Positions 9,474 to 62,593 of a stretch of DNA of 64,000 nucleotides are shown here, piece after piece. Both the position numbers and the translations under genes were made by a program. Source of the stretch: Armatimonadota bacterium (GTDB taxonomy: Bacteria; Armatimonadota; UBA5829; DTLH01); the NCBI GenBank assembly GCA_039680575.1, contig JBDKSP010000020.1, positions 1 to 64,000 of the forward strand. Reading direction: 5' to 3'. Under the pieces are notes generated by a model. The model saw only the letters and a list, made by a program, of their open reading frames with translations, was not told the origin of the DNA and did no database searches. How positions within the stretch are numbered: position 1 is the stretch's first letter; each line of letters starts with the position of its first letter.

Positions 9474-9577
9474 TGCTTCTATCCATGATGACGTGCTGGT
9501 TGTTCAGGGTGACGTGCTGGTTGTTAAGGGTGACGTGCTTCCATCCATGATGACGTGTTGGTTATTCAGGTTGATGT
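9469..9577 (+). repeat. degenerate 20-21 bp tandem repeat
   Basis: TGACGTG core at 9469, 9489, 9510, 9531, 9551 and degenerate at 9572. Confidence 0.85.
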
Positions 9578-9626
9578 ACAATCTCTCATTATGAGTGAAT
9601 TCTTACAGAATTCTTACAGAGTTGGT

Positions 9627-9655
9627 TTGACCCGTATGTTGCGTCTGAGTATAAT
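9627..9655 (+). promoter_or_regulatory. sigma70-type promoter
   Basis: TTGACC-N17-TATAAT upstream of the ORF at 9701. Confidence 0.7.
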
Positions 9656-9700
9656 TAACAGGTCGATCTATAAGTCTAAAATGGAAAGGCGAGGGTAAAT

Positions 9701-31312: not shown

Positions 31313-31352
31313 TTCATTGCCTCCAGTTGAATCCGGATTTACTCATCCGTGA

Positions 31353-31826
31353 CTATTGTGCCAGCGGTACAGCTCCGGCAAGGTCGTAGTTTACCACCGC
31401 GTCCATCTTGTTCTCCAGCTGATAGAACCGCAGGGTTTTTTTGGCTCCTATTGCGCTTTCAAACTTGGGCGCGTACTTGGTTTGCAGTTTGATCCGCCGA
31501 GCTTGAATGTCTTGGAACTCACTGAGCAGTGTTCGCGCCTGATCGTCCGTCATATTGTCGTAGCTCTTCGCAAAGCTCTGTCCGGCCTTTAGCAGCCTGT
31601 CGTTCAGTTTGGACATGTCACTGCGGTAGCTATTATATACAGGCCAGAATTTGTTTGCTTCCTGGTCATCCAGATTCATGTAATCGGAGACAATCTGCTG
31701 TCTCTCGGCCTGTATGTTTGTTTTGGTAAGCTCGATCTCATTTGCAGTCTGCGCCCAGGCCAGGACAATGGCCAGTGCCACCAAAATGGATGCTCCGATG
31801 ATTGTTAATACTGTTTTTCTATACAT
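31353..31826 (-). CDS. secreted helical hypothetical protein
   Basis: Signal peptide; KFWPVY motif. Confidence 0.7.
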   Translation of the reverse strand: MYRKTVLTIIGASILVALAIVLAWAQTANEIELTKTNIQAERQQIVSDYMNLDDQEANKFWPVYNSYRSDMSKLNDRLLKAGQSFAKSYDNMTDDQARTLLSEFQDIQARRIKLQTKYAPKFESAIGAKKTLRFYQLENKMDAVVNYDLAGAVPLAQ

Positions 31827-31883
31827 CGTTTGATTCCTTTCCGGTTTTATCGATCGCTGATGACGTTATTTTTTTTCTATTCT

Positions 31884-33398: not shown

Positions 33399-33399
33399 T

Positions 33400-34413
33400 T
33401 TATTTGCCCCTTTCTTTTTTTATTTCGAATGGATAGATCACTTTCCAGTCCCTTTGCATGTCGATAACTGTCCAGCCGTTTTCTCTTGCGGCTTTAAGTG
33501 CTTCCTCCGTACCCTTGTCGTAGGCATATTCACGATTAGCGTCAGTGTGATGGATGAGAAGCATCTCTCTGATACCGCTGCCGCCAGCGGTATACTGGAG
33601 CATCTGCAGGTCTCCGTCAGAGTTACCGACTGCCATTACCGGGCGGCGTCCGATAAACTTGTGTATTCCGACAGGTTTCCCTGCTTTGTCGTCTATAAAG
33701 TCTACCTTTGGTAATATCTTCAAAAAGGGTTTTCTGTTCTGCATCTCGTACTCGGTTACAAGGCTTGAGCCCACTACCTGTTCAGGAGGGATACTGTAAA
33801 CATTTTCGACCCAGGGACGCATAAAGTCGGATGTCCCGCCCGAAACGATGAATGTCTTGAAGCCATTAGTCCGAAGATAAATCAAAAGCTCAAGCATAGG
33901 CTGGTAGACGAGATCAGTGTATGGCCGCTGGAACCGTGGGTGCCTTGCAGTTGCGATCCAGTTGGAAACCGTGTTCTGGAACTCATCAGTAGTCATGCCC
34001 GCGTGCGTGGCCATAATGATCTTGCCGACATCCTGTAGTGTGGCTTTGGCACGATACGTCCTGTCGTTTTCCAGAATTGCTTTGAAGGGCTGCTCGTTTT
34101 TCCACTCAGGGTGCTGAGGCGCAAGCTCTTTTACCCGGTCAATAGCAAATGCAAATTGGAATGGTATTGGCTGTTCGGTCCACAGAGTACCGTCATTGTC
34201 GAATACTGCAATCCGGTCTTCGGGTGGTACGTAATTCGGGCTGCTCTTGTCCGTTACGGTTTTTACGAACTGTATAATGCTCTCTTTTGCTGGATTATCA
34301 GTCCAGGATGGCAAAGGACCCGCGGCATGGCTCACCGCCATGAGTTGTACAATTATGAGAGTCGCTAGAAGGCTGATTAATGCACGGCTTCTATAGCTCT
34401 GTAAATTCCGCAT
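33400..34413 (-). CDS. secreted HAD family hydrolase (acid phosphatase-like)
   Basis: FDNDGTLW, IVSGG, GNSDGD motifs; signal peptide. Confidence 0.9.
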   Translation of the reverse strand: MRNLQSYRSRALISLLATLIIVQLMAVSHAAGPLPSWTDNPAKESIIQFVKTVTDKSSPNYVPPEDRIAVFDNDGTLWTEQPIPFQFAFAIDRVKELAPQHPEWKNEQPFKAILENDRTYRAKATLQDVGKIIMATHAGMTTDEFQNTVSNWIATARHPRFQRPYTDLVYQPMLELLIYLRTNGFKTFIVSGGTSDFMRPWVENVYSIPPEQVVGSSLVTEYEMQNRKPFLKILPKVDFIDDKAGKPVGIHKFIGRRPVMAVGNSDGDLQMLQYTAGGSGIREMLLIHHTDANREYAYDKGTEEALKAARENGWTVIDMQRDWKVIYPFEIKKERGK

Positions 34414-34419
34414 TACCCT

Positions 34420-35730
34420 CTACTCCTTCGCTCCAGAACCGTGACACTTCTTGTACTTAACCCCGCTTCCGCATGGGCAGGGGTCGTTTCTTCCTGCTTT
34501 TGCGAACGCTGCTTTCTGTTTTGCGTCTTCTGCAGCCATTATTTGCATAACACCATCCGCGTAATGGTCTCTCCGCAGGAGTTCCGCCATTATACGCATA
34601 GGCTTTTCCGTGTGCTCGAAGAAAGCTTTTAGCCCCTTACACAAATAGTTGAGGCCGGGTTCCCCATCCGGAGTCTCTAGTATGCGGTTTTTAGGACACT
34701 CACCGTTGCAGGTGAAGAGATACCGGCACTCACGGCAGTATTTGGGCAGTAAGTCCTGCTTTGCCTTGCCGAAATCCCTCTGTTTCTGCGAGCTTACGAG
34801 CTCAGCAAGTGGAGTTTCCATCATATTCCCGAGTAAACCGCGAGGTTCCACGAAGTGGTCACAGGAGTAGAGATCACCGTTATGCTCCAGCGCGACCCCT
34901 TCTCCGCAGGTCGGGCGAAGGACGCAAAGGGTGGAATAACCGCGAAGCCATGAGGCCAGAACACCATCAAAAAACTGGACAAAAGTGCTCCCAACATCCT
35001 TCCTGACCCACTCATCGAAGATTTCGATCAGAAAACGCCCGTATTGTTCCGGTTTAACTGACCTTTCGGTGATTTTTTCGCCTTCCTGATAGCCCGTATC
35101 ATTGTCCCGCTCCACGATAGGGATAAACTGGATGTAGTGGGCGTCCAGTTCGTCGCGGAAGAACCTGTAGACCTCGAGCGGATGCGGGCTGTTGGCTGTG
35201 TTCACCGTGCAAAGGATGTTGAACTCGACCTTGCGCTCCTGCATGAGCCTTACAGCCTCGATCACATTCTCGAAGACGGACTTTCCGGTTTTATCTTTGC
35301 GGTATGTGTCATGAAGTGCTTTCGGACCATCCAGGCTGAGCCCCACGAGGAAGTTGTTATCGCTAAGAAACCTGCACCAGTCATCATCGAGAAGCACGCC
35401 GTTTGTCTGGAGGGTATTTTCTACCTGCATTCCCGGCTTCAGATATTTCTTCTCGGCTTCGACGGACCTTCTGAAGAAATCGAGACCCATAAGAGTCGGT
35501 TCTCCGCCCTGCCATGCGATTGTGACCTGTGGGGTCTGGTGAGCCTTGATTGTCTGGCGGATGTAGCTTTCCATCACCTCATCCGTCATACAGAATCGGC
35601 TTCCGGGATACAGACTCATCTTTTTGAGGAAAAAACAGTAGTCGCAGTGCAGGTTGCAGATTGCGCCGGTCGGTTTCGCCATTACATGGAAGGCTGCCAG
35701 TTTGCGATTTGCCTCCATAACGTACTCCAT
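34420..35730 (-). CDS. anaerobic sulfatase maturase (radical SAM/SPASM) with SEC-C motif
   Basis: CNLHCDYC, WQGGEPTL, YSCDHFV, CRECRYLFTCNGECP, GRNDPCPCGSGVKYKKCH. Confidence 0.95.
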   Translation of the reverse strand: MEYVMEANRKLAAFHVMAKPTGAICNLHCDYCFFLKKMSLYPGSRFCMTDEVMESYIRQTIKAHQTPQVTIAWQGGEPTLMGLDFFRRSVEAEKKYLKPGMQVENTLQTNGVLLDDDWCRFLSDNNFLVGLSLDGPKALHDTYRKDKTGKSVFENVIEAVRLMQERKVEFNILCTVNTANSPHPLEVYRFFRDELDAHYIQFIPIVERDNDTGYQEGEKITERSVKPEQYGRFLIEIFDEWVRKDVGSTFVQFFDGVLASWLRGYSTLCVLRPTCGEGVALEHNGDLYSCDHFVEPRGLLGNMMETPLAELVSSQKQRDFGKAKQDLLPKYCRECRYLFTCNGECPKNRILETPDGEPGLNYLCKGLKAFFEHTEKPMRIMAELLRRDHYADGVMQIMAAEDAKQKAAFAKAGRNDPCPCGSGVKYKKCHGSGAKE

Positions 35731-44527: not shown

Positions 44528-44908
44528 TTGAACAGCGTGCTGCGTGGTACGCTCGAAAACCAGCATTCGCGCAGGCTCCTGCTAAGGCTGATAAAACATC
44601 AGCTCAGCAGGGAGAGTGAGACTTACCGTCCCGATGACATGCCTGTACAAGCCAAGATCGACAGGCTGGACTGCCTTTCGGGACTGCTCGATGAGTTCGC
44701 TGCCAGACTCGCGGAAGCAGGTAATATCACTCCGGCCATTTCAGTTGAAGGATTCGAGACAGAGACCGATACAAGACGTGGAGAAGGGGTCCATGGGAGA
44801 ATAATGAAAGCGTTCGATGCGCTCAGAAGACACGGCGTGCCCTTTGGCGTCTCCGCCACAGCCACCAGGCACAACTGGGATGGAAGCTCTATCGAGTCCT
44901 GTGGTTAG
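44528..44908 (+). pseudogene. radical SAM gene remnant
   Basis: ISVEGFETETDTRRGEGVH…MKAFDALRRHGVPFGVSAT resembles the middle of a radical-SAM barrel, but there is no CxxxCxxC and the ORF is truncated. Confidence 0.55.
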
Positions 44909-45681
44909 CGCTTCGGCTTGCACGCGAGAAGCGCAGCTCCAAGAGCGCCGGTCATCTGCGGGTTGGGCGCTGTTTCAACCCGATGTCCCAATACCCGTTC
45001 CAGCGCTTTGTCCATTCCGGGGACAAGCGCGACCCCGCCGGTGAATACAACCGGGGGAATAACTGATTTACCAGCCATTGATGTAATTCTTGTCGCGATG
45101 GAGTTCTGGACACCAGCGACTATATCTTCCGGCGGCGTCCCCGACGCTAAAAGCCCGATAATCTCCGTTTCCGCGAAGACTATGCACATGCTGCTGATCG
45201 CTGCTGGTGTTACACTCCTCGATGCAAGCTCTCCGAGTTCAGCCAGTCCCACGCTCAAACGGTCTGCGACGACTTCGAGAAACCGGCCTGTGCCTGCGGC
45301 GCACCTGTCATTCATCATAAAGTCCTGAACGGAGCCGCCGGGGCCGAGCTTAAGGAGCTTGCTGTCCTGCCCGCCGATTTCCACTACTGTGCGTGCTTCA
45401 GGAACCACGTGGTGCACGCCGCGGGCATGGCAGGTGATCTCTGTGATCGTCGCATCGGCAATGCTGATGGTGTTTCGCCCATAGCCGGTCGCTACGATCT
45501 TTTGGACATCCTCGGAGTTGTGACTACTGTCCTTCAGGAGTTGCTCGAAAAGCTCCATTGCCAGATCATTGCTCTTTACACCCTGTCCAACCGTTCCTGA
45601 TGTGATGACCTCGTGTGTCATGGTATCCATCAGGACTATTTTTATCGCTCTTGATCCGGCATCTATTCCAACCCCGATCAT
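44905..45681 (-). CDS. ATP-dependent activator of 2-hydroxyacyl-CoA dehydratase / double-cubane protein (HgdC/BcrAD-type ASKHA ATPase)
   Basis: GIDAGSRAIK, ATGYGR, EITCHARG, EIGGQDSK, MNDRCAAGTGRF, SSMCIVFAE. Confidence 0.93.
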   Translation of the reverse strand: MIGVGIDAGSRAIKIVLMDTMTHEVITSGTVGQGVKSNDLAMELFEQLLKDSSHNSEDVQKIVATGYGRNTISIADATITEITCHARGVHHVVPEARTVVEIGGQDSKLLKLGPGGSVQDFMMNDRCAAGTGRFLEVVADRLSVGLAELGELASRSVTPAAISSMCIVFAETEIIGLLASGTPPEDIVAGVQNSIATRITSMAGKSVIPPVVFTGGVALVPGMDKALERVLGHRVETAPNPQMTGALGAALLACKPKR

Positions 45682-47048
45682 TACTTCCTCCACTCTCTTG
45701 CGGTTTCTATCAGTGCTTCTATTCTAGTCATTATCGTCGGCTGCATCGAATCTGTAAGCGGCGGCACTTCTATCTCCACCACCGGCAGGTTCAATTCAGC
45801 CTTAACGGCTCTCCCGATGACTGCGCCTTCTGTAGCGCAGTGGCTCGCTCCCGGTATCTTCGAGATCAGGACCGCTTCCGACCCGAATGCTTCGATATCT
45901 CTCATGATACGCTCTGCCCTGTCATGAGAACTCCCGACCATCGGGTCAGCGAGCGCCATCCTGGCGAGAGCCTCCATCGGATGCAAATCTTCCGGTATCT
46001 CATCCAGCGCATGCGCGAAAAGGTAGTCAGCCCCGCAAATACGGCCACCGCAGTCTTCCAACACATTCATTGCGCGCAAATCCGCGACGGGGTTTACCCA
46101 GAATATACGGACAGAATCCTCCGGCAGTATCCCAATGCCTGAGCTTATACGTTTTTGCGCTTCAGCGAGCATATCCTGAAGCACCGCGGCAGTCTCTTCA
46201 CGGTCGGAGCAGAAATGGATAGCGAACATCTCGGCAATCTGCATTTCAAGCGCAGGTATCGGACTCGATTTTGCGGTAAAGACAGCTAATCGCAGCTCAG
46301 AAAGAGTCTTCCGCGCCTTATTTGCGGCTCGGATCCCGTCCTTCAGCATATCATCACTCAGTTTATATCCTGAAAGCTCTTCAAGCGCAGTCTTGACCCG
46401 CTCCAGCTCGGATTTTACGAACGCAACCTGATCGACTGTGGCGTAAAACCCGCCCGGAAGCCTGATTACCTTTTCATTCGGACCTGGTTTCCGTCTTGCG
46501 GGCATTTCCCACCAGTTGATCGGATACCCAAGCCCTTCTACCCGCTGTGCAATGGATGAGAAATCATCACAAGTCGCCCCAACGCTGCATGTGAGCATAT
46601 CGGGAATCGGAAAATGCGCTTCGGTGACGAATGCTCCGAGCATCGCTCTCACAGGGCAGAATGATTCATCCAGCCCGTATGATGCGGCAAGGCCAAACAG
46701 ACCCTCGCTCATTTCCATAATGCATGGAGTCCACCAGGCGCCGTCCGGGTAAAATGCTACCACATTCGGCAGAGAATATGCCATCACCGGGACTGTCCCG
46801 AGGTCTTTCATGACTCCGACCAGCTTTTTACCGTTGCTTCGGGCTTCACGCAGCCGGTCTTCTTCGGTCAAAAGGAAGTTCCAGAGCCGGAGCGCGGCTG
46901 CGGAATCATCATACCTGAGCTTGAGCAGCCTGAGGTCTCCATCCTCAACATGCCTTCTGAGCGGGCCGCCATACCAGGGCTCTTTCAGACCTGCTTCTTT
47001 CAGCTCGATATAATGCCTGTCCCAGTCGCTCAAGGTAATTCCGCTCAT
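45681..47048 (-). CDS. divergent 2-hydroxyacyl-CoA dehydratase (HgdAB/FldBC) family Fe-S protein
   Basis: FCPVRAM, ATCDD, ASHC, TRIEALIE; overlaps both neighbours (ATGA, TAATG). Confidence 0.75.
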   Translation of the reverse strand: MSGITLSDWDRHYIELKEAGLKEPWYGGPLRRHVEDGDLRLLKLRYDDSAAALRLWNFLLTEEDRLREARSNGKKLVGVMKDLGTVPVMAYSLPNVVAFYPDGAWWTPCIMEMSEGLFGLAASYGLDESFCPVRAMLGAFVTEAHFPIPDMLTCSVGATCDDFSSIAQRVEGLGYPINWWEMPARRKPGPNEKVIRLPGGFYATVDQVAFVKSELERVKTALEELSGYKLSDDMLKDGIRAANKARKTLSELRLAVFTAKSSPIPALEMQIAEMFAIHFCSDREETAAVLQDMLAEAQKRISSGIGILPEDSVRIFWVNPVADLRAMNVLEDCGGRICGADYLFAHALDEIPEDLHPMEALARMALADPMVGSSHDRAERIMRDIEAFGSEAVLISKIPGASHCATEGAVIGRAVKAELNLPVVEIEVPPLTDSMQPTIMTRIEALIETAREWRK

Positions 47049-48010
47049 TTGATCGACTCCATAAAAGCCTGAATCCTCGATGATGTACGGACATCAACGG
47101 TCCCGTCGTCATTCGCATCGATCTGAGTAAACGGCAGGCCGGACCATTCCTTCAGCCGGTAAGCCTCGGCGTTCCAGTTGTCACACCAGAGGTAACGGCG
47201 AAGTATGATGCCGCGCACCCCGCGTTCAGTAAGTTTTAGCTTAAGCCACTTGAACAACTCGTTGTTCGGCCTTCTGAACGCATCGTAAATTGTGTTGAAA
47301 TAGGAATCAATAAGCGCTGACACAGGGTTTTCTTTAAGCAGCCTTCGGTCAAACGGCGCCGGAAGTGTCCTCTCACCCGTTTCGGTAGCATCCAGCGAGA
47401 CATATCCTCCGGCACTCTCGATGAAATCGTATATGTCGCACTGATTAGCTGGAATCGGCCCGCCGACAAGAGCAACCGGAACACCTGAAGGCGTGTATTT
47501 TGTATCCTGAATAGCCTGGTCGAATTTACCGGTTCTATTGAATTCCGATAAACGAAGAGCCCAATCACGGGGCGAAAGGCTTCCCTGAAGGTCACGAAGC
47601 GCAGCTCTGTTGTCGTTGTATTCGATCATCGTCTGTCTGAGTATATCTGGGGTGGGAGTGTTGCCTCCAAGCTCGATCAGAAAATCACCCAGCCGCTTCA
47701 GCTCAGAAATGTACAGCCGCTGCGCCTCGACTGTCTGCCAGGTGTGCGGGACGTGCATCAAAAACGCCGACAGATCTGTGTTTTCAGTGATGACATCGTA
47801 AATGCGTCTCATCTGGTCGCAGGCAGTTGTCACTATGACCCCGGCAGCGGTTTTCTCTTCGATGGCAGCACCTGCAAATGAGCAGGCGTAAGGACACACA
47901 CCAGGTCCCAGCTTGAGAGTCGAGCTGCCCGCCGATATTCTCGATGGTAATAGCCCATGCGCCGCAATCCATTCAGCCGGGATGAACGGACAACTGTAGA
48001 TGATCTTCAC
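47045..48010 (-). CDS. 2-hydroxyacyl-CoA dehydratase family subunit
   Basis: PAEWIAAHG, VCPYA, TACDQMRR, WCD, RIQAFME. Confidence 0.8.
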   Translation of the reverse strand: MKIIYSCPFIPAEWIAAHGLLPSRISAGSSTLKLGPGVCPYACSFAGAAIEEKTAAGVIVTTACDQMRRIYDVITENTDLSAFLMHVPHTWQTVEAQRLYISELKRLGDFLIELGGNTPTPDILRQTMIEYNDNRAALRDLQGSLSPRDWALRLSEFNRTGKFDQAIQDTKYTPSGVPVALVGGPIPANQCDIYDFIESAGGYVSLDATETGERTLPAPFDRRLLKENPVSALIDSYFNTIYDAFRRPNNELFKWLKLKLTERGVRGIILRRYLWCDNWNAEAYRLKEWSGLPFTQIDANDDGTVDVRTSSRIQAFMESIK

Positions 48011-48013
48011 GCT

Positions 48014-49270
48014 TCAGTCTCCACTGCAACCAAGCGCATTACACGCGCTTTTGACGGTCTCGAAAAGCGCTTCGACTCTTACGGCGATCCGCGCGGAGTC
48101 CGAAGGCGAATAGTCCGTCTCGATCCTTAGAAACGGGAGATGCAGCTCGTTTTCAGCAAGCTGCTTTACCCGGTATGATTCTATGCTGTAAGTAATACAT
48201 GCCTGCCATGCGAGGTCTATAATGCACTCAGCGCGGTACTGCCTCGCGAGGTCGCGGACTATATCGATCCTGCGGTTGTTTTTCGTCATCACCGAGCAAT
48301 GCAGGTTGAAATATTTTGCAGCGAGCGCGCGAACCGGGTCGTCTGCAGTAGGGTCGACATTCTCCAGGATCGGCTTCAAACCCGTGCAGTTCTCGGCGCA
48401 AACGATCAGCCCGCCGTGGTCCTCGATAATATCGACGACCCTCTCAGCCCCGTGGACCACCGGAACGCCGGTCAGAAGGACTCTTACCCTCGACGACCTG
48501 TCGCCGTTTCCTGATTGACCCTCATATAGCTTAATCGCCTTTTTATACTGCTCCAGATCGGCAGGTATTCCCGATATGGTGCTCTTCAGCTCAAGTAACT
48601 GCCGTCCGGTAATTGGAGGGCTGTCCTGCTCCATAAGCTCTGCGAGTCTGAGTCTGAGCGAGCGCTCGTGGTTCATCACTTTGATCGCTTCTCTGATCTT
48701 CTCATCTGTAATCTCTACATTGAACCGTTTTTCAAGCTCGGACTTAAGTTTTCTTAGCTCAAGCACCCAATGTTCGAATGCGTCGGCATCATCCTGCTTT
48801 TGAGGAAGCTCTATTATATATGTCGGCCTCGACTCAGCCATCAGTTCGAACATCTTCTTTTTGCCGTCGCAGGTGGTCTCAGCGATGATAAGGTCAGACA
48901 TCTCAAGAAACGGATTGGAACCAAGCGCGTGGTAACCGAATGTCGACTTGATGAGCGGACACAGGTTCGATGGCAAAACTTCTTCAGCAGCCGGAATAGT
49001 CTTGGCAGAGCCGCCGCAGAGACAGGCTGGTACGCCTCCCGCCGCCATTATCAGCTCTCTGGGGGCATACTCGCACATAATCCCGACAACCGGCCTGCCC
49101 TCGGACTTTGCCTTTTCAGCGTAATTCAGGCAGTTATCGATCATGTTATCGAACCACTTGAGTGGAGCTGTAGGACCATGCCCGGTGGAGCAGGAGACAG
49201 CGCTTGGTGGGCAGCATGGGTCGCAGTTCTCTCTAGTAACTTGCTTATTGTTACCACAGCATTTGCTCAT
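48014..49270 (-). CDS. 2-hydroxyacyl-CoA dehydratase family / double-cubane-cluster-like reductase with Cys-rich N-terminus
   Basis: GIMCEYAPRELIMAAG, LPSNLCPLIKS, ETTCDGKKK, ENCTG, ETDYS…RVEALFE. Confidence 0.85.
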   Translation of the reverse strand: MSKCCGNNKQVTRENCDPCCPPSAVSCSTGHGPTAPLKWFDNMIDNCLNYAEKAKSEGRPVVGIMCEYAPRELIMAAGGVPACLCGGSAKTIPAAEEVLPSNLCPLIKSTFGYHALGSNPFLEMSDLIIAETTCDGKKKMFELMAESRPTYIIELPQKQDDADAFEHWVLELRKLKSELEKRFNVEITDEKIREAIKVMNHERSLRLRLAELMEQDSPPITGRQLLELKSTISGIPADLEQYKKAIKLYEGQSGNGDRSSRVRVLLTGVPVVHGAERVVDIIEDHGGLIVCAENCTGLKPILENVDPTADDPVRALAAKYFNLHCSVMTKNNRRIDIVRDLARQYRAECIIDLAWQACITYSIESYRVKQLAENELHLPFLRIETDYSPSDSARIAVRVEALFETVKSACNALGCSGD

Positions 49271-49282
49271 CTTGCTTAATTC

Positions 49283-50089
49283 CTAGTCTTTCTTGCGTGC
49301 AACGAATAACCCTTGAATGATTTTACCGGCATGTGCGAGCTCTTGAATGAACATCATCTCTCCTGCCAGCGCCTTAAAGAGCTCGGTATCATAACCGATG
49401 ATCCTCAGCGCGTCGGAAGTGAGCTGCATATCGAGCATAGCGAGGTAGAGGTCTATGCACGGAGCATATCTTCCGGTATCCTCGCAAACCTGCACATCGC
49501 AGCCGTTTGCCGTGAGTAAATCACAGTAGCCGTTTGTGTCCTGCAGGTTCGGGAACTTCATGAACCACATAAAACGGTCGGCTTCGTCTTTTGTAAGGCC
49601 GGACGGACCTTCGATCCAGTCGGTGAAAGCAATCGTCCCGCCCGGCTTTACCAAACGCGCCGCTTCGGCTATCAACTGCGGCTTGTCTTCGACATAGCAC
49701 CAGGCGTCCTCACCCCAGATGAAGTCGGCTATGGAATCTGGGATCCCGCTGTTGCAGACATCAGCGAGTGTAAATGTAGCTCTATTTGAAAAACCTTCTT
49801 CTCTGCATCGACACTGCGCGCGGTTCATTACTTCCTCTGTAGCATCGACTCCGTGCATGTGCTTTACATCCTGGAACCTCAGAAGAAACCTCATTCCGGC
49901 TCCATTGCAGCAGCAGAGATCGAGCCCGAAGCCTTTTCCAGCTACTTTGGCCTTCTCTGCAAGGTCCATGGACGATTTGAACCCGCCTATGTGGATCTGA
50001 TGCCCCATAATCAGTTCCCACAGGTCGCCTACCGGACCGCTGTATACAGACTGAACGTCACATAAACCAATGCCTTGAGTGTCTTTCAT
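49283..50089 (-). CDS. class I SAM-dependent methyltransferase
   Basis: Motif I LDLCCCNGAG, GVD, RLVKPGGTIAFTDW. Confidence 0.88.
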   Translation of the reverse strand: MKDTQGIGLCDVQSVYSGPVGDLWELIMGHQIHIGGFKSSMDLAEKAKVAGKGFGLDLCCCNGAGMRFLLRFQDVKHMHGVDATEEVMNRAQCRCREEGFSNRATFTLADVCNSGIPDSIADFIWGEDAWCYVEDKPQLIAEAARLVKPGGTIAFTDWIEGPSGLTKDEADRFMWFMKFPNLQDTNGYCDLLTANGCDVQVCEDTGRYAPCIDLYLAMLDMQLTSDALRIIGYDTELFKALAGEMMFIQELAHAGKIIQGLFVARKKD

Positions 50090-50164: not shown

Positions 50165-52099
50165 CTATCGCCGAAAATCTATGAGAAGTCTTTTGTCACC
50201 ATCTCTTCTAGTGAGACAGGCGCTGTCGAAATATTCCAGAAGCGCGATTGCGTATTTCCGCGAAACCGAGAGAATGTCGCGCAGTTCGGCGGCAGTTATC
50301 CCGCCATTCGACTTGATGTATTCGACGACGGATATTTTGGCCTTCTCGAAGGTGTCTCTGTGATATGTGACCTTGTCGCTCAAGCGTATGAGCTGTCCCT
50401 GGTCGATAAGGCTTGTCATGATGTTCTTGAACACCTTTGGCGAAAGCCGCAGTTCATCCATCACATCGTCTTCGAGCGGAGTTGAGTAACCTGCCGAGAG
50501 AAATATAGACTCAATCCTCTCTGCAGCCTTCTGTTCCGCATCGGAGAGGCTCGACTCACGGTCTGCGAGTCCGAATTTATTGTCTCTTCTTACAAAAATC
50601 TTCTTCCTGTCAAGTTCCGAGGTGATTGCATCGAAGACCTGCCGGTCAGCGAGTTTCAGGAACCTGGATTGCAGGTCTGCAGCAGGCATCATTGTTTTGT
50701 AAGCGTCTTTCGAGTAATAGTCCTTGATAATATTGATCAGTTTTGCCGCAAGTTCATCGAACCTGTCTCTGTGAAGATACTTCTCTTGAGCGCCAGAAGT
50801 AACAGAGACGAGTTTTTCAACGCTGACAAGCGATTTTATGACGTCGCCAACCGCTGCCTCACGTTCACCAATGGAAAAAGCGATCTCTGAGGCATTCTTT
50901 GGCACGAACCTGGACTTAAAAAAGGCATGGTCGACTACATCGGAGATGCAACCTTCGAGTTTCTTCAGCCCCTTGATTGCCGCTTCATCGAAACGCTTAT
51001 GATGCATGGGCTGTGAGTCGAGGATTGTCCCTCCGCCGATGGTTTCCTGCGAAGAGAACGACCGTATGACAAACCTGTCTTTTGGCAGCGCGGCGGTCGG
51101 TGACTCCAGCACGAGCTGAGCATAGCCGGTTTCATCCGGTACAAGAGTTTCTGTGTCCAGAAGCACTGCCCGGCACATCACCTCGTCTGTCCCGACGTGC
51201 AGTCTGACACGTGTGCGGTTTTTCAGTTCGTCATTGTAGCTCTGAGATACGAAAAGCCGGACATCGAGAAGCGCAGTAGGGGAGAGCGAGCCGGGAGCGC
51301 AGGCGACCTGCCCTCGCCTTAGTTGATCCTTCTTCACATCCTGAAGGCTGATAGCCGTTCTTCTTCCGAGATACGACCTTTCCCTGCTCTCATTGTGGAT
51401 CTGTATTCCACGGACCCGTGCAGTTAGTCCATCCGGCATTATCTCCAGCTTGTCGCCGATATTTACTTCACCGGAGAGGACTGTTCCAGCGATGACTGCA
51501 CCGAAGCCCTGCAGCGCGAAAACACGGTCTACAGGCATTCTGAATATCCCGCTGTCCCGGCGTTTTTTGGTCTTCCCGGCGACGGAAATGAGCGCGGACC
51601 GCACTTCATCGACTCCCACTCCGGTAATTGCAGAAACAGGGATAATCGGCTGGCCTTCGAGGAATGTCCCAGCGACGAGGCTTTCTATTTCAGATTTGAC
51701 GAGGCGAATATGCTCATCATCCACGAGATCGGCCTTCGTAATTGCAATTATTCCGGTTTCGACTCCCAGAATTCGCAGAATATCGAAGTGTTCGCGCGTC
51801 TGGACATTGATTCCCTCATCAGCAGCGACTACCAGGAGCGCGGCGTTTATGTTGCTCGCACCCGCGACCATTGTCTTGATGAGCTTTTCATGCCCGGGGA
51901 CATCTATAAAGACGATCTGCCGGTCGAACCCAGGTGTTTGCATGAAGGCAAAGCCGAGCTCGATTGTGATTCCACGCTTTTTCTCTTCTGTAAGCGTATC
52001 ACAATCGATTCCCGTGAGAGCCCTGACCAAAGCTGTCTTCCCGTGGTCTATATGCCCGGCAGTCCCGATTATTGTTTGTTCAATCTCATCTGATTTCAT
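50165..52099 (-). CDS. selB: selenocysteine-specific elongation factor
   Basis: GTAGHIDHGKT, RGITIELGF, DVPGHE, TKAD; C-terminal winged helix SRKYAIALLEYFD. Confidence 0.97.
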   Translation of the reverse strand: MKSDEIEQTIIGTAGHIDHGKTALVRALTGIDCDTLTEEKKRGITIELGFAFMQTPGFDRQIVFIDVPGHEKLIKTMVAGASNINAALLVVAADEGINVQTREHFDILRILGVETGIIAITKADLVDDEHIRLVKSEIESLVAGTFLEGQPIIPVSAITGVGVDEVRSALISVAGKTKKRRDSGIFRMPVDRVFALQGFGAVIAGTVLSGEVNIGDKLEIMPDGLTARVRGIQIHNESRERSYLGRRTAISLQDVKKDQLRRGQVACAPGSLSPTALLDVRLFVSQSYNDELKNRTRVRLHVGTDEVMCRAVLLDTETLVPDETGYAQLVLESPTAALPKDRFVIRSFSSQETIGGGTILDSQPMHHKRFDEAAIKGLKKLEGCISDVVDHAFFKSRFVPKNASEIAFSIGEREAAVGDVIKSLVSVEKLVSVTSGAQEKYLHRDRFDELAAKLINIIKDYYSKDAYKTMMPAADLQSRFLKLADRQVFDAITSELDRKKIFVRRDNKFGLADRESSLSDAEQKAAERIESIFLSAGYSTPLEDDVMDELRLSPKVFKNIMTSLIDQGQLIRLSDKVTYHRDTFEKAKISVVEYIKSNGGITAAELRDILSVSRKYAIALLEYFDSACLTRRDGDKRLLIDFRR

Positions 52100-52156
52100 G
52101 TTTTTATCTATCACGAAAGCACGAAAGGGAGAAAGGAAGAAAGAACCAGTGGATGT

Positions 52157-52415
52157 CGTGCTTCGGGATGTTATCACGAAGCATATGAGATTCCTCCTAC
52201 CCTATCCCTCGGGCAGTATTTGAAATACTGCCCGGGCTGGCCAAAGAGGGATCTGTGATCCCGATCAATCAACTATAATCAATCTCCCGACATCAGAGAT
52301 GCCTCGTTTGCCTTTCCGGGAGGAATTGCAAATCCCTCCCGAGTTGGTTGCAGACCGGCCACTACTTCTATTTCCTGATTTCTTATGCTTCGAGATTTTT
52401 TCATCCCGAAGCACG
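52157..52415. repeat. composite repeat: family B palindrome, three-hairpin element (52208-52343), family B palindrome
   Basis: Reverse complement is homologous to 62604-62844. Confidence 0.85.
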
Positions 52416-52456: not shown

Positions 52457-54049
52457 CTAAATCCTATTCATAACCGACTCATAAAACATCCTGACAGGTG
52501 CGCCGCCGAAAGAGATTGCCATCCATACTGCTTCATTGATCTCCTCCTCGCTGATCCCCATAGCCCGCGCTTTCTCGATGTGGATTTTGATGCATGGCTC
52601 ACATTTAGATAGAACAGAAAGCGAGATCGCCATAAGCTCCTTCGTTCGGAGCGAAATGGCGCCGGATGCGTTAACGGCACGCATAAAGTCACCGAACTTC
52701 TCTTCTGCTGCGGATTGCACAGCTGTTTTCGTCTCGGTTGGCGCGGCGCAGCAGTCTGCACTCGTTGGCGAGCAGCAGCAAGCTCCGTCATTTGGTTCAG
52801 ACATGTTGGTAATCTCCTTCCTCACCGGGGTGTATGCCTTGACGCTGGTTCTCAAGAAGATTCTACCTTCAGATTTTGAAACGACTTTTCCTATAACTAC
52901 CGCGTGGCTCACACCTCTCGACCTGAGCTTTTCGACCAGTGCGTCGGCTTTTACCTCAGGGATAGCTATCAAAAGCCCTCCTGATGTCTGTGGGTCGTAC
53001 AGGACATGGACTATCTCTTCCGGCACATCGTTCGACACGGATACACGGCTGGAGGCATATTCGCTGTTCCTTTCGATACCGCCGGAGATGTATCCCTGTG
53101 CAACATAGTCCAAGATTTCATCGAAAACCGGCACCAGATCCGTATATATTTCTGCTGTTACGCCGCTCTGCGATGCCATCTCGCCGAGGTGTCCGAGCAG
53201 CCCGAACCCCGTTACATCCGTAGCTGTCGTGACTCCCATCTCGATCATAACCTCGGCTGCAGTCTTATTCAGCTCGGTCATGGAATTCGCTGCAGCGGCG
53301 AGCGCAGCGCCGGATGCTTTCCCCATCTGGCCGGCAAAGCTGATGATCCCGACTCCGAGCGGTTTTGTAAGCACCAATGCGTCGCCTGGCTGCGCCTTAT
53401 CGTTTGTAACGATTTTGGACGGATTGACCATCCCCGTGACGGCATAACCGAACTTCGGGTCTTTGTCGTTGACGCTGTGTCCGCCTATGATTGCGACTCC
53501 AGCCTCTCGCATTTTATCCATTCCGCCGCGCAGCATTCGGGACATTATCTCGTGGCTCAGGGTCTCGATGGGAAAACCGATTATAGAAAGCGCGGTCATC
53601 GGCTTTCCGCCCATCGCATAGACATCGCTGAGTGAGTTTGCGGCGGCTATCTGCCCGAAAGTGTAGGGATCGTCGACACTCGGTGTAAAGACATCCACTG
53701 TCTGAACGAGCGCGGTCTCATCATCGATTCTATAGACACCAGCATCGTCGCACGTATTCGTCCCGACAAGAACGCGGGGGTCCGACACTTCCGGGAGCCC
53801 TGAAAGCACCTTTTTAAGGTCATTCTGGTTGATTTTGGAAGCGCAGCCCGCCTTCTCGACGAGTGTTGTGAGGTTAACAGCGTCAACTGTCTGATCCGGC
53901 CGTTCTCCGGCGCATGGACAGATACCCTTATTTCTAAAAGTGTCGCAAGGGCAGCCCTGTTTAGGGTTACAGATGCAGTGACCGAGCTTTATGGACCGCT
54001 GCATAACGCGGCGTCTTTTTTCGATGTCTATTTTCATATCATTACTCAT
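52457..54049 (-). CDS. selD: selenophosphate synthetase (Cys form) with N-terminal Cys-rich domain and C-terminal CMD/AhpD domain
   Basis: AGCASK, DDAGV, QTVDVFTP, ANSLSDVYAMGG, GGHS, TDVTGFGLLGH, DPQTSGGLL; C-terminal KELM…CEPCIKIH. Confidence 0.95.
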   Translation of the reverse strand: MSNDMKIDIEKRRRVMQRSIKLGHCICNPKQGCPCDTFRNKGICPCAGERPDQTVDAVNLTTLVEKAGCASKINQNDLKKVLSGLPEVSDPRVLVGTNTCDDAGVYRIDDETALVQTVDVFTPSVDDPYTFGQIAAANSLSDVYAMGGKPMTALSIIGFPIETLSHEIMSRMLRGGMDKMREAGVAIIGGHSVNDKDPKFGYAVTGMVNPSKIVTNDKAQPGDALVLTKPLGVGIISFAGQMGKASGAALAAAANSMTELNKTAAEVMIEMGVTTATDVTGFGLLGHLGEMASQSGVTAEIYTDLVPVFDEILDYVAQGYISGGIERNSEYASSRVSVSNDVPEEIVHVLYDPQTSGGLLIAIPEVKADALVEKLRSRGVSHAVVIGKVVSKSEGRIFLRTSVKAYTPVRKEITNMSEPNDGACCCSPTSADCCAAPTETKTAVQSAAEEKFGDFMRAVNASGAISLRTKELMAISLSVLSKCEPCIKIHIEKARAMGISEEEINEAVWMAISFGGAPVRMFYESVMNRI

Positions 54050-54185: not shown

Positions 54186-55586
54186 CTAGGAATGAACCTT
54201 TTTATTAAGAATCGCACGGAGCGCGTTTGCTACGACGCTGTCTTCGTCCGGCTGGATAGTCCTGAAATCGAATAACACAGACTCATGGTGTATACGCGCG
54301 AATATCGGAGTGTCGTTGTATCTGAGTTTTTTTGCGAGCAAGTCGGCAGACATGCTCTCAGGTTTTATGCTGAGAATCTTCGTAGGCATAGTCTCGGCAG
54401 GGACGGACCCGCTCCCGACCTGTGATCTGCCATCTATTACGGATACCTCGGCTGATATGTCTCCAAGTTTGGCTGCAACGGTCAGCGCCCGTCTTTCAAG
54501 AACATCCAGCGGGATAGACAGCATTCTGTAAGTCGGATGCCGCTCCTCCAGCCTGCCGGGTTCGAGGAACAGCTTGAGCGTAGCCTCCAGCGCCGCGACT
54601 TCCATCTTTCCTACTCTGAGAGCCCTCGCGAGCGGGTTTTTCTTGATCTTTTTGATGGTATTTTCCTTGCCGACAATAATCCCGGACTGCGGGCCGCCGA
54701 TCAACTTGTCTCCGCTGAAGCAGATTGCGTCGCATCCCGCCTTTACACTTGCCTGCACCATCGGCTCAGGCTCGAGCCCGTAATTGGCGAGGTCGATTAA
54801 GGCACCGCTCCCCAGGTCGTCGATAATCGGGATGCCATGTTCCTTCGCAATGGGCGCCATCTCTTCAATAGCAGGCTCTGCTGTGAACCCGACAATCCTG
54901 TAGTTGCTCTGATGAACATGCAGGATGGCTCCGGTGTTCTCGTTTATAGCAGAAGCATAGTCCCGAAGGTGGGTTTTGTTCGTAGTTCCGACTTCGCGCA
55001 TGATCGCGCCGCTCGCCGCCATCACATCAGGCATCCGAAACGCGCCGCCGATCTCCACCAACTGTCCTCTGGAGACGATTACTTCCTTACCGGCTGCAAT
55101 TGTGTTGAGAATCAGCATTGTGGCGGCTGCGTTGTTATTTACAATGGTAGCAGCCTCAGCCCCGGTGAGTTCGCGGAGCAGTCCGGTTACATGGACATCC
55201 CGGCTGTCTCTTTGCCCTGTCTCAATACTTGTCGCAAGTGTGCAGTAGCCTTTTATAACATCACTTACCGCTTGAGCAGCCGCCTCCGAAAGCATTGCTC
55301 TGCCTAAGCCAGTATGAAGGATAATCCCTGCTGCGTTTACTGCATGCCGGATAGACGGTCTGAACCTGGCATCGATGTATTCCAGAACCATCAAACCTAT
55401 ATTCTCAGCCGATAGGTCCATCTCCGGCTTGTCTTCAGTGATGATCCGGCTGCGCAGCGTGTCCACGACTTTCCGGCATGAGTCGGCGAGAAATTCGCGG
55501 TCATGCTTATCTAGAGCAATCTTCAGCGCTTCCGTATTCATCAATTCATCTATAGCAGGCAGTTTCCGCAGGATGTCTTTCTTCAT
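54186..55586 (-). CDS. selA: L-seryl-tRNA(Sec) selenium transferase
   Basis: NAAGIILHTGLGRA, VNNNAAA, SRGQLVEIGGAFR, EVGTTN, DLGSG, FSGDKLIGGPQ. Confidence 0.97.
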   Translation of the reverse strand: MKKDILRKLPAIDELMNTEALKIALDKHDREFLADSCRKVVDTLRSRIITEDKPEMDLSAENIGLMVLEYIDARFRPSIRHAVNAAGIILHTGLGRAMLSEAAAQAVSDVIKGYCTLATSIETGQRDSRDVHVTGLLRELTGAEAATIVNNNAAATMLILNTIAAGKEVIVSRGQLVEIGGAFRMPDVMAASGAIMREVGTTNKTHLRDYASAINENTGAILHVHQSNYRIVGFTAEPAIEEMAPIAKEHGIPIIDDLGSGALIDLANYGLEPEPMVQASVKAGCDAICFSGDKLIGGPQSGIIVGKENTIKKIKKNPLARALRVGKMEVAALEATLKLFLEPGRLEERHPTYRMLSIPLDVLERRALTVAAKLGDISAEVSVIDGRSQVGSGSVPAETMPTKILSIKPESMSADLLAKKLRYNDTPIFARIHHESVLFDFRTIQPDEDSVVANALRAILNKKVHS

Positions 55587-55621: not shown

Positions 55622-55658
55622 TAAAAATGGGGGCTGACGTTTCACGTCAACCCCCATA
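55622..55658 (-). terminator. rho-independent terminator ending the three-gene unit upstream of selA
   Basis: Minus strand ATGGGGGTTGACGT-GAA-ACGTCAGCCCCCAT followed by TTTTAT. Confidence 0.75.
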
Positions 55659-55696: not shown

Positions 55697-56410
55697 CTAT
55701 CTTGTCCAGATAGTATCCTTAATCTTTACCTTGAATGGGCCGGTTTTAAGTACAGGTCGAACTGTGACACGTCCTTTTACATTTGATGGTATTCCCCCGG
55801 AATACTCACATGTGCCGCCTCACCCATACTTGAACGACCCACTCCAGACCACTTTGCCCGAGCTGTTTATGACTTGGAAGCGTGGAGGATCGGTTTCTCC
55901 ATCAGATTTTTTGATTACACATTTGTTGTTGCCCTGAGCAGTAACTACGTTGAGGTCCATATTTGCCTTGTCGCCGTGCTTGGTGACTTTTATGGACGCG
56001 ATGAAAGGCGGGCCAAAATTAAGTTTCTGAGTCTTATTCGCCGAGACATCGATCTTGCGCGTATTACCAGGCGATATAGATGCGGTCCATTCCACCTTGT
56101 TCTTGTCCTTAGCTATCACGTCGCAGTTCCAGACCTCATGGCTTCCGACGGGCAAAAGCAGTACACCATTAGTTGTAGAGTATTCGGTGATTTTCCTGCC
56201 TGAGTTGCTGAACATCGTAAGGACAGCGTTCCCATGGTAAAGGAGAGTCACTTTTCCCATCTTACCTTTGTACGTTTTGGGGTCAAAGCGACTGAATCCC
56301 AGCGTACCGCTGTTGGCTGGATAGGTGGTTATACCAATTACCACCAACGCGCACACACCAGCTATAACTGATGCCATGAATTTTCTGGAGCATTTTGGAA
56401 TTGTGGTCAT
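55697..56410 (-). CDS. putative exported selenoprotein (G-U-G-G-T-C, UxxxC), 237 aa with UGA read-through
   Basis: In-frame TGA at 55820-55822 followed by 40 more sense codons to TAG; SECIS-like hairpin at 55789-55805; next to selA. Confidence 0.75.
55789..55805 (-). promoter_or_regulatory. putative bacterial SECIS element
   Basis: GTATTCC-GGG-GGAATAC; loop 21 nt after the UGA. Confidence 0.6.
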
Positions 56411-56484: not shown

Positions 56485-57270
56485 CTACTTGGAGCCAAGT
56501 TTTAAATGGCCGATTGGTGTGCAGTCCAGGCACCTGATGCATTCGGTGCTGTTGATGTCTTCAACCGGATCTATATCGACCGGGCATTTTTTCGCGCATG
56601 CGCCGCAGTGGGTGCACTTGTTCATCGCAAGACGCATCCTGAAAAGGGATATTCTGTTGAAAAGCGAGAATATTGCGCCGAGCGGGCAGAACATCCTGCA
56701 GAAACCGCGGGTTACGAGTATCGTAAAGATAAAGAAGGCAGCCAGAATGGAAACCCTTACGTAAAACATAAAGTTTATAGGAGTAGTCGAGTGCAAAAAC
56801 AGCCGGCGAGGAAGAGCTGATTCCAGTGTCCCGGATGGGCAGAAATTACAGAATGAGTATGGTGCGCCTGGAAAGAAAAACGGCACGGCAAATACCAGCC
56901 CGACCAGGACCAGATACTTTGTAAACCTGAGCGGCCGGGGTATCGAGAACTTCTTAACAGGAATTTTCGATAATAAGTCCTGCAGCAGCCCAAATGGGCA
57001 GACCCATCCGCAGACCAGCCTGCCAAAGAAAGAACCGATCAGTCCGAGTATCCCTAAAGTGACGAACGGGATGATCCTGAGTGTCGAAAAGTTTACGAGC
57101 ACGCCGATAGGGCAGGCAAACATAGATAGCGGGCACGAATGGCAGTAAAGCGCCGGACCGCACATGGTCTTCAGATCAAAAAAAGGAAGACCCAGGATAA
57201 CGAGCGCGATAAGCTGGCTCAGATAGCGTAATCTTGCTAGTTGTTTAGTTCTTTTGATTATGGACCCCAT
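56485..57270 (-). CDS. membrane-bound 4Fe-4S polyferredoxin (NapH/MauN-like)
   Basis: CHSCP, CGWVCPFG, FCNFCPSG, CRMFCPLG, CTHCGACAKKCP, CIRCLDC plus TM helices. Confidence 0.88.
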   Translation of the reverse strand: MGSIIKRTKQLARLRYLSQLIALVILGLPFFDLKTMCGPALYCHSCPLSMFACPIGVLVNFSTLRIIPFVTLGILGLIGSFFGRLVCGWVCPFGLLQDLLSKIPVKKFSIPRPLRFTKYLVLVGLVFAVPFFFPGAPYSFCNFCPSGTLESALPRRLFLHSTTPINFMFYVRVSILAAFFIFTILVTRGFCRMFCPLGAIFSLFNRISLFRMRLAMNKCTHCGACAKKCPVDIDPVEDINSTECIRCLDCTPIGHLKLGSK

Positions 57271-57276
57271 AATCAA
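57254..57276 (-). promoter_or_regulatory. putative SECIS hairpin that also contains the polyferredoxin start codon
   Basis: Perfect TTGATTATGG-GGT-CCATAATCAA; loop 25 nt after the UGA at 57292. Confidence 0.6.
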
Positions 57277-57285
57277 TCCTCTCTA

Positions 57286-57576
57286 TTACAGTCAAGTAGG
57301 GCATGCTTTTCCGCCGGACTTGGACTTTCCGGCCTTTTGCTTATTTGGGGATATACTCGGTTTTTCGGCAGGAGCTTCCAGTTTTCCGTCTTTACCTCGG
57401 ATAACGTCATGGGTCAGGCTGAGTTCCGTTACGGAGAGCTCAGTTTTTGAGGATTTACTCACCTCATGTTTAACAAAAAGGGTGGAATATAAGACAAACC
57501 CAGCGAAGACAATCGCTAGGACGATAAGGAGCAAAGGGCGCGCGCTTCGATATTCATCTGTACTCTGTATGGACAT
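57286..57576 (-). CDS. putative membrane-anchored selenoprotein with C-terminal C-P-T-U-L (CxxU)
   Basis: Single TM helix, Lys/Ser/Pro-rich linker, ends TGC CCT ACT TGA CTG TAA TAG; SECIS-like hairpin downstream. Confidence 0.65.
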
Positions 57577-57641: not shown

Positions 57642-57670
57642 AGTTTATTCCAACAAAGAGCGGATGTCAA
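57642..57670 (-). promoter_or_regulatory. sigma70-type promoter for the selenoprotein unit
   Basis: TTGACA-N17-TAAACT on the minus strand. Confidence 0.7.
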
Positions 57671-61460: not shown

Positions 61461-61630
61461 GGTAACTCAAGAAGTTATGATTGAGATACCGGGGTGGAGG
61501 GGCTAGCTATGCTTCTGCGTCCTCTGACAAGGACGACAGCGTCCCGAAGACATCCCCCACCTCCATATAAGCGTCAATTGGAATATTGCGGCTCCTAGTG
61601 GAGACCGACTATCACGCAAGCAAACGCTCG
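61461..61630 (+). ncRNA. putative IS110 bridge RNA
   Basis: 5' stem-loop at 61461-61490; target-binding loop at 61491-61564 with TATGCTTC and GTCCCGAAG matching the insertion target; second stem-loop at 61571-61627. Confidence 0.75.
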
Positions 61631-61669
61631 TGGAGATCCACCCCGAACTACAAGCGAGGTAATTATAGC

Positions 61670-62593
61670 ATGAAGTTCTATGGAGTGGATGTAAGCAAGG
61701 ATACCCTAGACATCTGTAGCGATGCCAAGATAGTGCAGATCGGTAATGACAAGAAGTCTATCAGGTCCTTTCTTAAGAGTGTATCTTCCGGCAGCGTGGT
61801 GGCAATGGAGTCGACCAATAAGTATCATCTGGTGATGGCAGATTTATGTTATGCGGCTGGGATGAAGGTGTATGTGGTGAATCCTCGCATGACTCGCCAC
61901 TACCGGGAAGCTCTGAATCTGCGCGGTCATACTGACAGGCTGGATGCAAAGACGATTAGCTCGTATATTAAGCATCATCACGATGATCTGCGTCCTTATG
62001 TGCCTAAGTCCACCGACCAGCGGAGACTGCAGGGCATAATCCGCAGGAGAGCGAAGCTCGTAGCAGTCAAAGTGCAACTGCACCAAAGCATGCAGGAAAT
62101 CAAGGAACTCAAGAGTGATCTGGATGCTGTGCTAAAACGTATAGATAAGATGCTGGTTCAGATCGATGTGCTCATAGACAAGCAATTGGAAGGTAACGTA
62201 GGTCGTGATCGGCTTGCAACAATAACAAGTGTAGGCCCAGTAGTGAGCGCGGCTCTGGTTGCCGATTTGGATGCAGGGGAGTTTGTAAGCGCTGATGCCT
62301 TTGTTGCATTCTATGGACTTGACCCGGTGCCCAATGACTCCGGCAAGTCCAGGGGCAAAAGGAAGATCAGCAAGAAAGGCCATAGACTTGGTAGGACCCT
62401 GCTCTATGTCTCCGCACTGTCGGCAGCCAGCTCAAAAGCCTGGAAGCCAGTATACGAGCACATACTCGCAAAGGGCCTCACGCGGGTGTAGGCATTGGTT
62501 TGCCTTGCCCGCAAGATAGCCCGAACTGCCTGGTCGGTATATACACATAAGACAGTGTTTGAGGCAGAAAGACTACTTGTGGGCTTGACATAA
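61670..62593 (+). pseudogene. IS110 transposase (DEDD RuvC + Tnp) with premature TAG
   Basis: GVDVSK, MEST, TDRLDA, DSG serine; TAG at 62489-62491 followed in frame by ALVCLARKIARTAW… up to TAA at 62591-62593. Confidence 0.85.

Follow-up and report, generated by a model that had tools for sequence, protein, structure and literature searches.

The window analyzed here, a whole stretch of 64,000 nucleotides from an Armatimonadota genome, contains a reverse-strand reading frame that raises the question of whether an in-frame TGA ends the gene or encodes selenocysteine (Sec) and, in the latter case, what the resulting protein might do. The frame starts with an ATG at 56410 and contains a single in-frame TGA (55822–55820), after which 40 codons remain open up to a TAG at 55699–55697. 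A preliminary description had proposed that the frame continues past the TGA, after the residues WSGSFKYG, to this TAG, and read-through translation gave a product of 237 aa, with Sec at position 197 (U197) and a second Cys at position 201 (C201). The gene and its signals are as follows.

55697–56410, reverse strand: predicted selenoprotein gene, 237 aa (frame, homologues and predicted structure); the product comprises a signal or anchor helix (residues 11–29), a predicted β-sandwich (about 47–130) and a predicted Ig-like Sec domain (about 133–237) containing the motif F-K-Y-G-U197-G-G-T-C201-E-Y-S
55820–55822, reverse strand: in-frame UGA, predicted Sec codon (TGA among the listed pattern sites, and Cys in homologues)
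55789–55805, reverse strand: candidate bacterial SECIS hairpin GTATTCC-GGG-GGAATAC, with a 7-bp stem and a loop that begins with G (covariation and synonymous-site constraint)

From the comparison with homologues, we predict with near certainty that the UGA at 55822 is read as selenocysteine. Among 61 related genomes, nine contained matches, nearly all of which carry one internal TGA, and all 13 distinct copies share [FY]-G-U-G-G-x-C-x-Y-[SA]. The preliminary description had expected homologues to align on both sides of the UGA with Cys and Sec exchanged there; both flanks are indeed conserved, and Cys occupies the U column in three natural homologues (L176, L179 and L260). As counter-evidence it had named homologues that stop with TAA or TAG or that lack conservation downstream; instead, the TGA and 39–44 codons 3΄ of it are retained. 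We further scanned DNA across GTDB with the pattern [FY]-G-x-G-G-x-C-x-Y, accepting TGA, TGC or TGT at the U codon, and obtained at least 130 stretches with at least 135 distinct sites; TGA was present at 135 of the 135 sites listed. According to the record titles, the listed sites derive mostly from Planctomycetota and Verrucomicrobiota, with further sites from Lentisphaerae, Sumerlaeota, Hydrogenedentota and Armatimonadota, and one or two records each elsewhere. Because the pattern required the second Cys and a downstream Pro, it allows no judgement on those two positions.

The alternative that the TGA is a true stop, with the conservation 3΄ of it arising from an RNA element or by chance, would agree with the databases, which give the three nearest homologues (the product of the U197 gene among them) as 196-aa proteins terminating at the UGA, and with the observation that the hairpin by itself is statistically ordinary. 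However, natural homologues have Cys aligned with the TGA, G213 and P225, which lie past the hairpin, are invariant in 13 homologues, and at 26 of the 135 listed sites the frame is open for at least 150 further codons, often into membrane domains; moreover, a chain ending there would lack the final strands of the predicted Ig domain. We therefore consider a true stop extremely improbable. Recoding of UGA to Trp was rejected because the sense residue aligned with the UGA is Cys and because TGA terminates ordinary genes of this genome, for example that of a paralogue on contig C47. The nearest named homologue of the 237-aa product is an Armatimonadota hypothetical protein (87% identical).

A profile search gave matches to the domain in 61 of 401 Armatimonadota genomes; in 53 of these, the match contains a TGA (one weak). 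In a motif-free census of the Armatimonadota loci, the 62 distinct sites consisted of 55 with U, 3 with C and 4 with other residues, and Cys was found at +4 in 48 of the 55 U sites. Thus, the UxxxC motif named in the preliminary description holds for U197 and C201, but some paralogues do without the second Cys, which is absent from the remaining 7 sites. SelA was detected in 48 of the 53 TGA-form genomes vs 214 of 401 overall (overlap counted manually); three of the five without a SelA match have SelB, and the other two are G033 (68% complete) and G166 (weak domain match). Neither SelA nor SelB was matched in the Cys-form genomes G220 (93% complete) and G377 (96% complete). A Cys-only pattern applied to JGI metagenomes gave two matches, one of which is real; the other (L259) was rejected as a chance match antisense to another gene. 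The U-G-G-x-C family of predicted selenoproteins, with its predicted Ig-like fold, is widespread, in many phyla, and uncatalogued.

Several family copies are often present per genome, Sec-less paralogues of the same scaffold exist, and the N-terminal scaffolds are highly variable. A paralogue in the present genome (contig C47, about 9100–10520; L013 and L184) is 471 aa long, has a U-G-G-V-C motif and a SECIS-like hairpin, and lies far from the selenium genes of the window, adjoining groEL and glycoside-related genes. In genome G009 (contig C211; L160/L217), a degenerate copy in which Ser takes the place of Sec is located approximately 2.4 kb from a DsbD gene. A de novo scan of the present genome for additional selenoproteins failed to recover the U197 gene itself, and the single molybdopterin enzyme match in the genome has no internal TGA.

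The preliminary description had placed the hairpin 21 nt downstream of the UGA. This value is the distance to the apical loop, since the stem begins at 14 nt and the loop at 21 nt. The bacterial SECIS (bSECIS) model, as given in a passage of a 2026 review (PMC13188914), specifies a loop of 3–9 nt with G, a stem of 4–16 bp, a distance of 16–37 nt from UGA to loop and a minimum free energy of –7.5 or lower; the present hairpin, with its 7-bp stem, its GGG loop at 21 nt and a folding energy of –8.8 kcal/mol for the local 30-nt window, lies within these limits. The fold alone is unremarkable (z –1.4 to –1.65; 16 of 200 shuffles fold equally well). Among the 135 listed sites, offsets 20/30 form C-G in 121 and T-A in 10 and are mismatched in 4, offsets 21/29 form T-A in 120, T-G in 7, A-T in 3, G-T in 2 and other combinations in 3, and free third-codon positions keep pairing bases (G at offset 17 in 129; A or G at offset 32 in 130). 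These counts include kin, which are not independent of each other, and columns that the search pattern itself fixes. Slid registers of the hairpin pair much worse at these sites. The co-varying stem and the agreement with the model support the earlier identification of a bacterial SECIS. In the real Cys copy from the JGI metagenomes, a paralogue lying in tandem with a TGA copy, the hairpin has decayed to 3 of 7 pairs. The conservation of Y-S-x-x-[IV]-P after the motif largely reflects the SECIS itself.

The U197 gene is the third in an apparent operon. The first gene, on which the preliminary description had not remarked, is a predicted second hidden selenoprotein ending in C-P-T-U (hereafter CPTU), and the second encodes a membrane 4Fe-4S protein.

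57642–57670, reverse strand: sigma-70-like promoter match TTGACA-17-TAAACT, by consensus only (18 such matches found in the region vs 12 expected by chance)
57286–57576, reverse strand: predicted second selenoprotein, with a single TM anchor and the ending A-C-P-T-U-L-stop (CxxU; UGA at 57294–57292)
57254–57276, reverse strand: candidate SECIS of the CPTU gene, with a 10-bp stem and a GGT loop, and with the 4Fe-4S start codon inside it
56485–57270, reverse strand: membrane 4Fe-4S protein, Fer4_5, NapH/MauN-like (Pfam PF12801/PF12838; hydropathy)
55627–55657, reverse strand: intrinsic terminator closing the three-gene operon (z –6.5)

The terminator was computed at 55657–55627, in agreement with the earlier placement of one just past the TAG. 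When the hairpin of the U197 gene was used to draw up, post hoc, a strict hairpin rule, this rule was satisfied by only 3 of the 5,239 TGA codons that follow at least 80 open codons in the whole genome, two of which are those of the U197 and CPTU genes. The third, at 33456 (reverse strand) of contig C14, has no Cys-like motif and is probably due to chance. The overlap between the CPTU SECIS and the 4Fe-4S start codon recurs in many loci, and translation of the 4Fe-4S protein could in this way be tied to the supply of selenium. The 4Fe-4S protein has four predicted TM helices and two ferredoxin-type cluster motifs, with an NCBIfam napH match below the cut-off, and may act as an electron conduit. 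Its gene is preceded by a CPTU gene in 17 of 23 loci, while four of the six loci without one have <70 nt of upstream sequence inside the search window; six further loci with the CPTU gene were found separately.

Ahead of the genes for more distant homologues of the 4Fe-4S protein (approximately 40% identity) lie instead genes for CD1871A-like CxxC proteins (all five tested match the model, one above the cut-off). The pairing of CD1871A (NF040920) with Fer4_5 resembles the present arrangement in that a small protein with a TM anchor and a CxxC-type motif at its C-terminus is encoded directly upstream of a homologous 4Fe-4S gene. However, the CPTU protein is longer, ends in C-P-T-U and is followed, after the 4Fe-4S gene, by an Ig-fold selenoprotein in the same operon, and none of four CPTU proteins matched NF040920. 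CPTU is therefore regarded as a positional Sec analogue rather than a member of CD1871A.

The preliminary description had assigned a signal or anchor helix to the N-terminus, and hydropathy showed one hydrophobic segment, at residues 11–29, after basic residues; close orthologues have two or three N-terminal helices. On this basis, the U197 protein is likely membrane-tethered, with the rest of the chain outside the cytoplasm. An AlphaFold model of residues 47–237, obtained with a 13-sequence alignment (pLDDT 88.5), consists of two all-β sandwiches; U lies in the only low-confidence loop, between strands, and C201 opens the next strand. The Sec domain is thus likely to be an Ig-like sandwich with Sec on an exposed, flexible hairpin. 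Among the structure matches listed for this C-terminal domain (Z 7.9–9.0, values near the level usual for an Ig-like fold that say nothing of function) were the PorU C-terminal domain (Z 9.0), an adhesin repeat (Z 8.4), MG1 of α-2-macroglobulin (Z 8.3, rmsd 2.2 over 74 residues) and an S-layer protein. The view that the fold is β-rich and not of the thioredoxin type was consistent with this model, and a thioredoxin-fold UxxC/CxxU selenoprotein was rejected in light of the all-β Ig model, the UxxxC spacing and the lack of a Trx Pfam match.

No Pfam or NCBIfam model matched the Sec domain above its cut-off (29 and 21 full-length members, respectively); a fused pseudopilin domain in two members was the only such match among the members scanned. 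The ESM Atlas, queried with a natural Cys homologue, gave no match above 0.80, and a PDB sequence search returned a collagen adhesin (E 7.5e-4) that covers the upstream part only. The Sec domain behaves as a module at the C-terminal end of proteins ranging from <250 to approximately 750 aa or more, and some members have a multi-pass membrane domain after it. In two Sumerlaeota-type loci (L048, 4777–6570; L060, 1935–3686), a T2SS pseudopilin (GspG-like) domain follows the Sec domain.

The closest listed folds, a weak profile match to MG2, the highly variable N-terminal scaffolds and the Sec-less paralogues might suggest a structural envelope module, macroglobulin- or adhesin-like, in which Sec would form a stable Se-S or inter-chain Se-Se cross-link. 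However, the near-exclusive use of costly Sec (at every listed site) is more readily explained by catalysis than by a static link, flexibility is predicted for the loop, and the operon contains an electron-transfer module; we regard such a role as quite improbable. The profile match to MG2 (PF01835) is weak (genome-level E 1e-4 to 1e-5; hhalign E 7e-4). The alignment places U at the 'FGG' hairpin of MG2, and the Ig-like MG topology is seen in the predicted model of the Sec domain, as in its match to MG1; however, the Sec domain scores only 17–27 bits against a cut-off of 32.8, occurs outside macroglobulin and carries Sec and Cys in the hairpin.

A second alternative is that the U-G-G-x-C hairpin forms a soft-metal site (Cu+, Hg2+ or Ag+) serving scavenging or detoxification rather than redox cycling. 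The predicted exposure of a Se/S pair on a flexible loop, the several paralogues per genome and one copy (L256) that adjoins a heavy-metal P-type ATPase are compatible with this idea. However, the alignments contain no conserved His or Met as a third ligand, metal transporters are not recurrent among the top neighbour clusters, and the linked CxxU/4Fe-4S module suggests electron flow; we consider metal binding improbable.

We instead tentatively infer that the U197 protein is a selenol/selenenylsulfide carrier in a trans-envelope redox relay with the CPTU and 4Fe-4S proteins, a reading that falls somewhat short of an even chance. In such a relay, low-potential electrons would enter the cytoplasmic 4Fe-4S clusters, cross the membrane via the conserved Cys motifs of the 4Fe-4S protein and pass on to the flexible C-P-T-U arm, which would reduce the U197–C201 bond; the selenolate could then attack a target in the envelope, for instance a disulfide, a peroxide or an oxidised form of sulfur or selenium. 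The Ig domain would thereby work like the N-terminal Ig domain of DsbD (nDsbD) without being its homologue. The relay is favoured by the spacing of U and C by four residues at most Sec sites, by their predicted placement at a flexible loop of an Ig fold, and by the CPTU gene ahead of the 4Fe-4S gene, a position held by CD1871A-like CxxC proteins elsewhere. A precedent is nDsbD, which carries a redox-active CX5C pair on an Ig fold according to the passages of a 2011 study (PMC3438397). Of 16 genomes with a close orthologue of the 4Fe-4S protein (at least 47% identity, a threshold set after the scores were known), 13 also carry the Sec domain. Among 53 genomes of the class, DsbD_N and this close orthologue were each found in 13, with no overlap (naive P = 0.014, kinship being ignored).

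As described in that study (PMC3438397), nDsbD (PF11412) resembles the U197 protein in being an extracytoplasmic Ig fold with a redox pair fed by a membrane conduit, and rows of the DsbD_N alignment show a local G-C..G-x-C-Y look-alike of the Sec motif. However, nDsbD has CX5C rather than UX3C, whereas here the hairpin lies mid-domain and Sec is used, and the TM/thioredoxin fusion of DsbD is absent from the U197 protein, which has a single N-terminal helix. Homology with DsbD_N was rejected (no Pfam match; hhalign probability 0.4%). The fold class of the predicted model is Ig, and a structural match to nDsbD may lie beyond the 50 matches listed for the model, among which nDsbD does not appear.

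Several observations argue against the relay. A close 4Fe-4S orthologue is lacking in 40 of the 53 TGA-form Armatimonadota genomes. Of the 16 genomes with such an orthologue, three (G031, G043 and G047), in which CPTU and 4Fe-4S are present, gave no match to the Sec domain. The link between module and Sec domain is therefore not obligate. In addition, the C47 paralogue lies far from the module, the second Cys is missing at some Sec sites, paralogues without Sec exist, and the genome also encodes a CcdA/DsbD_TM-type protein, so that there is no obvious need for another conduit.

In clades that lack the module, family genes often abut genes for CarboxypepD_reg-repeat proteins of approximately 800 aa, some of which (L244, L246–L248, L252 and L082) end in a TlpA-like domain without CxxC; such an end was apparent in 6 of 9 of these proteins, and only 2 of 6 tested had a thioredoxin-family Pfam match.

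Downstream of the operon, the window contains a selenium island.

54186–55586, reverse strand: selA, selenocysteine synthase
52457–54049, reverse strand: selD, Cys form (C-A-S-K), with an N-terminal Cys-rich stretch, a Cys-rich linker and a C-terminal AhpD/CMD domain
50165–52177, reverse strand: selB, Sec elongation factor
49283–50089, reverse strand: class I SAM methyltransferase
44905–49270, reverse strand: double-cubane reductase (48014–49270; NF040772 above cut-off), two HGD-D proteins and a BadF-type ATP-dependent activator

The next gene after the U197 gene is selA, as the preliminary description had noted. The tRNA-Sec gene lies on another contig, so that selA, selB, selD and tRNA-Sec are all present in the genome. 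Among 103 family loci, the neighbours included the 4Fe-4S gene (at least 23), selB (at least 19), the selD-AhpD fusion and HGD-D/double-cubane genes (at least 14 each), the methyltransferase (at least 11), the activator (at least 9) and DUF3034 (at least 8), these counts being lower bounds because many loci are short; tRNA-Sec was found near the family gene in 13 of 27 chosen loci. The block at 44905–50089, 3΄ of selB, is conserved, and the planctomycete islands repeatedly include a gene for a putative outer-membrane protein of DUF3034 (L081, 2871–3797, and seven other loci). The N-terminal stretch of SelD has the pattern C-x-C..C-P-C..C-P-C, which from its motif we took to be ferredoxin-thioredoxin-reductase-like; its N-terminal 60 aa had no Pfam match, and this reading was rejected as lacking Pfam support.

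These neighbours bring in the main rival to the relay, namely that the U197 protein catches and carries selenium for the cell's own supply, with environmental selenium being bound or reduced at the Sec hairpin and passed inward, as by a SoxY arm, to the double-cubane reductase and the SelD-AhpD fusion. Family genes cluster with selA, selB, selD and tRNA-Sec, 19 of the 53 TGA-form genomes carry the double-cubane reductase vs 21 of 348 others, and NF040772 is near-totally dependent on SelD according to an excerpt of Haft and Gwadz (10.1101/2022.07.06.499078). However, 34 of the 53 TGA-form genomes gave no double-cubane match, many copies of the family stand alone or are joined to unrelated domains (pseudopilin, multi-pass TM), the SoxY model has no match in the genome, and the clustering with sel genes may simply reflect co-transfer. 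We thus consider selenium carriage possible but rather unlikely. SoxY itself (PF13501), with its C-terminal GGCGG arm, was rejected as a relative, with 0 matches in the genome and 40 residues following the Sec motif. A broader proposal, which would join this idea to the relay, is an all-selenium conveyor across the inner membrane of anaerobic PVC, Armatimonadota and related bacteria, in which the 4Fe-4S protein, CPTU as a swinging arm and an Ig-fold carrier that uses Sec almost exclusively would capture and reduce environmental selenium and feed it to SelD-AhpD via the double-cubane reductase; taken as a whole, it seems unlikely. If it were true, the conveyor may be the main reason that such genomes keep the Sec code, the orphan double-cubane/SelD link would gain a function, and DsbD would be replaced where it is missing.

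The tentatively preferred relay and its genes can also be set beside other selenoprotein systems. The U197 gene is similar to bacterial SelB/bSECIS genes, as outlined in part of the 2026 review (PMC13188914), in its UGA, a G-first loop 16–37 nt downstream, the presence of selA/B/C/D and the rarity of Cys homologues, but it differs in that its product has a predicted Ig-like fold and that Cys forms occur very seldom. SAO/Tso operons likewise contain several hidden selenoproteins, some exported, beside NF040772 in anaerobe-type genomes; however, the present locus has no ABC transporter or MerB-like lyase, and the phyla are different. The Sao/Tso NCBIfam models had no match in 10 proteins (8 from the window) or in 21 family members. 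DUF1573 (UGC), which we take to be Ig-like, and hypothetical DG (NF049953, GUxG) have similar short motifs around U. Both were rejected: the DUF1573 model (PF07610) matches two other genes, neither the U197 gene nor the paralogue, and NF049953 has no match at the locus at E ≤ 1 nor in the paralogue.

Taken from sequence comparison, the two predicted selenoprotein families are real and are uncatalogued in NCBIfam 20.0, Pfam and the 2026 catalogue. Among the 119 selenoprotein families in Table 1 of that review (PMC13188914), none matches by domain, U-G-G-x-C or C-P-T-U; BSepDB comprises 111 families according to an extract of its description (PMC13326102). A literature search found no account of Armatimonadota, CPTU or UxxxC selenoproteins and no relevant item on CD1871A. 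In the database entries examined, members of both families stop short at the UGA. A passage on deep-Sep (PMC12013277) states that it may miss families without Cys homologues; Cys forms are so rare here that pipelines requiring Cys homologues would drop the Ig-fold family. Redox chemistry on an Ig fold is unusual, and a 2011 passage called the Ig fold of nDsbD otherwise undescribed for a redox-active protein (PMC3438397). The operon may offer a route for electrons across the membrane that can be tested as an alternative to DsbD, as well as a handle on the unexplained link between the double-cubane enzyme and selenium. Elsewhere in the window, the region 28988–35730 (reverse strand) presumably encodes two arylsulfatases, a HAD hydrolase and an anaerobic sulfatase-maturating radical SAM enzyme, and the ORF at 61586–62491 (forward strand) resembles an IS110-family transposase.
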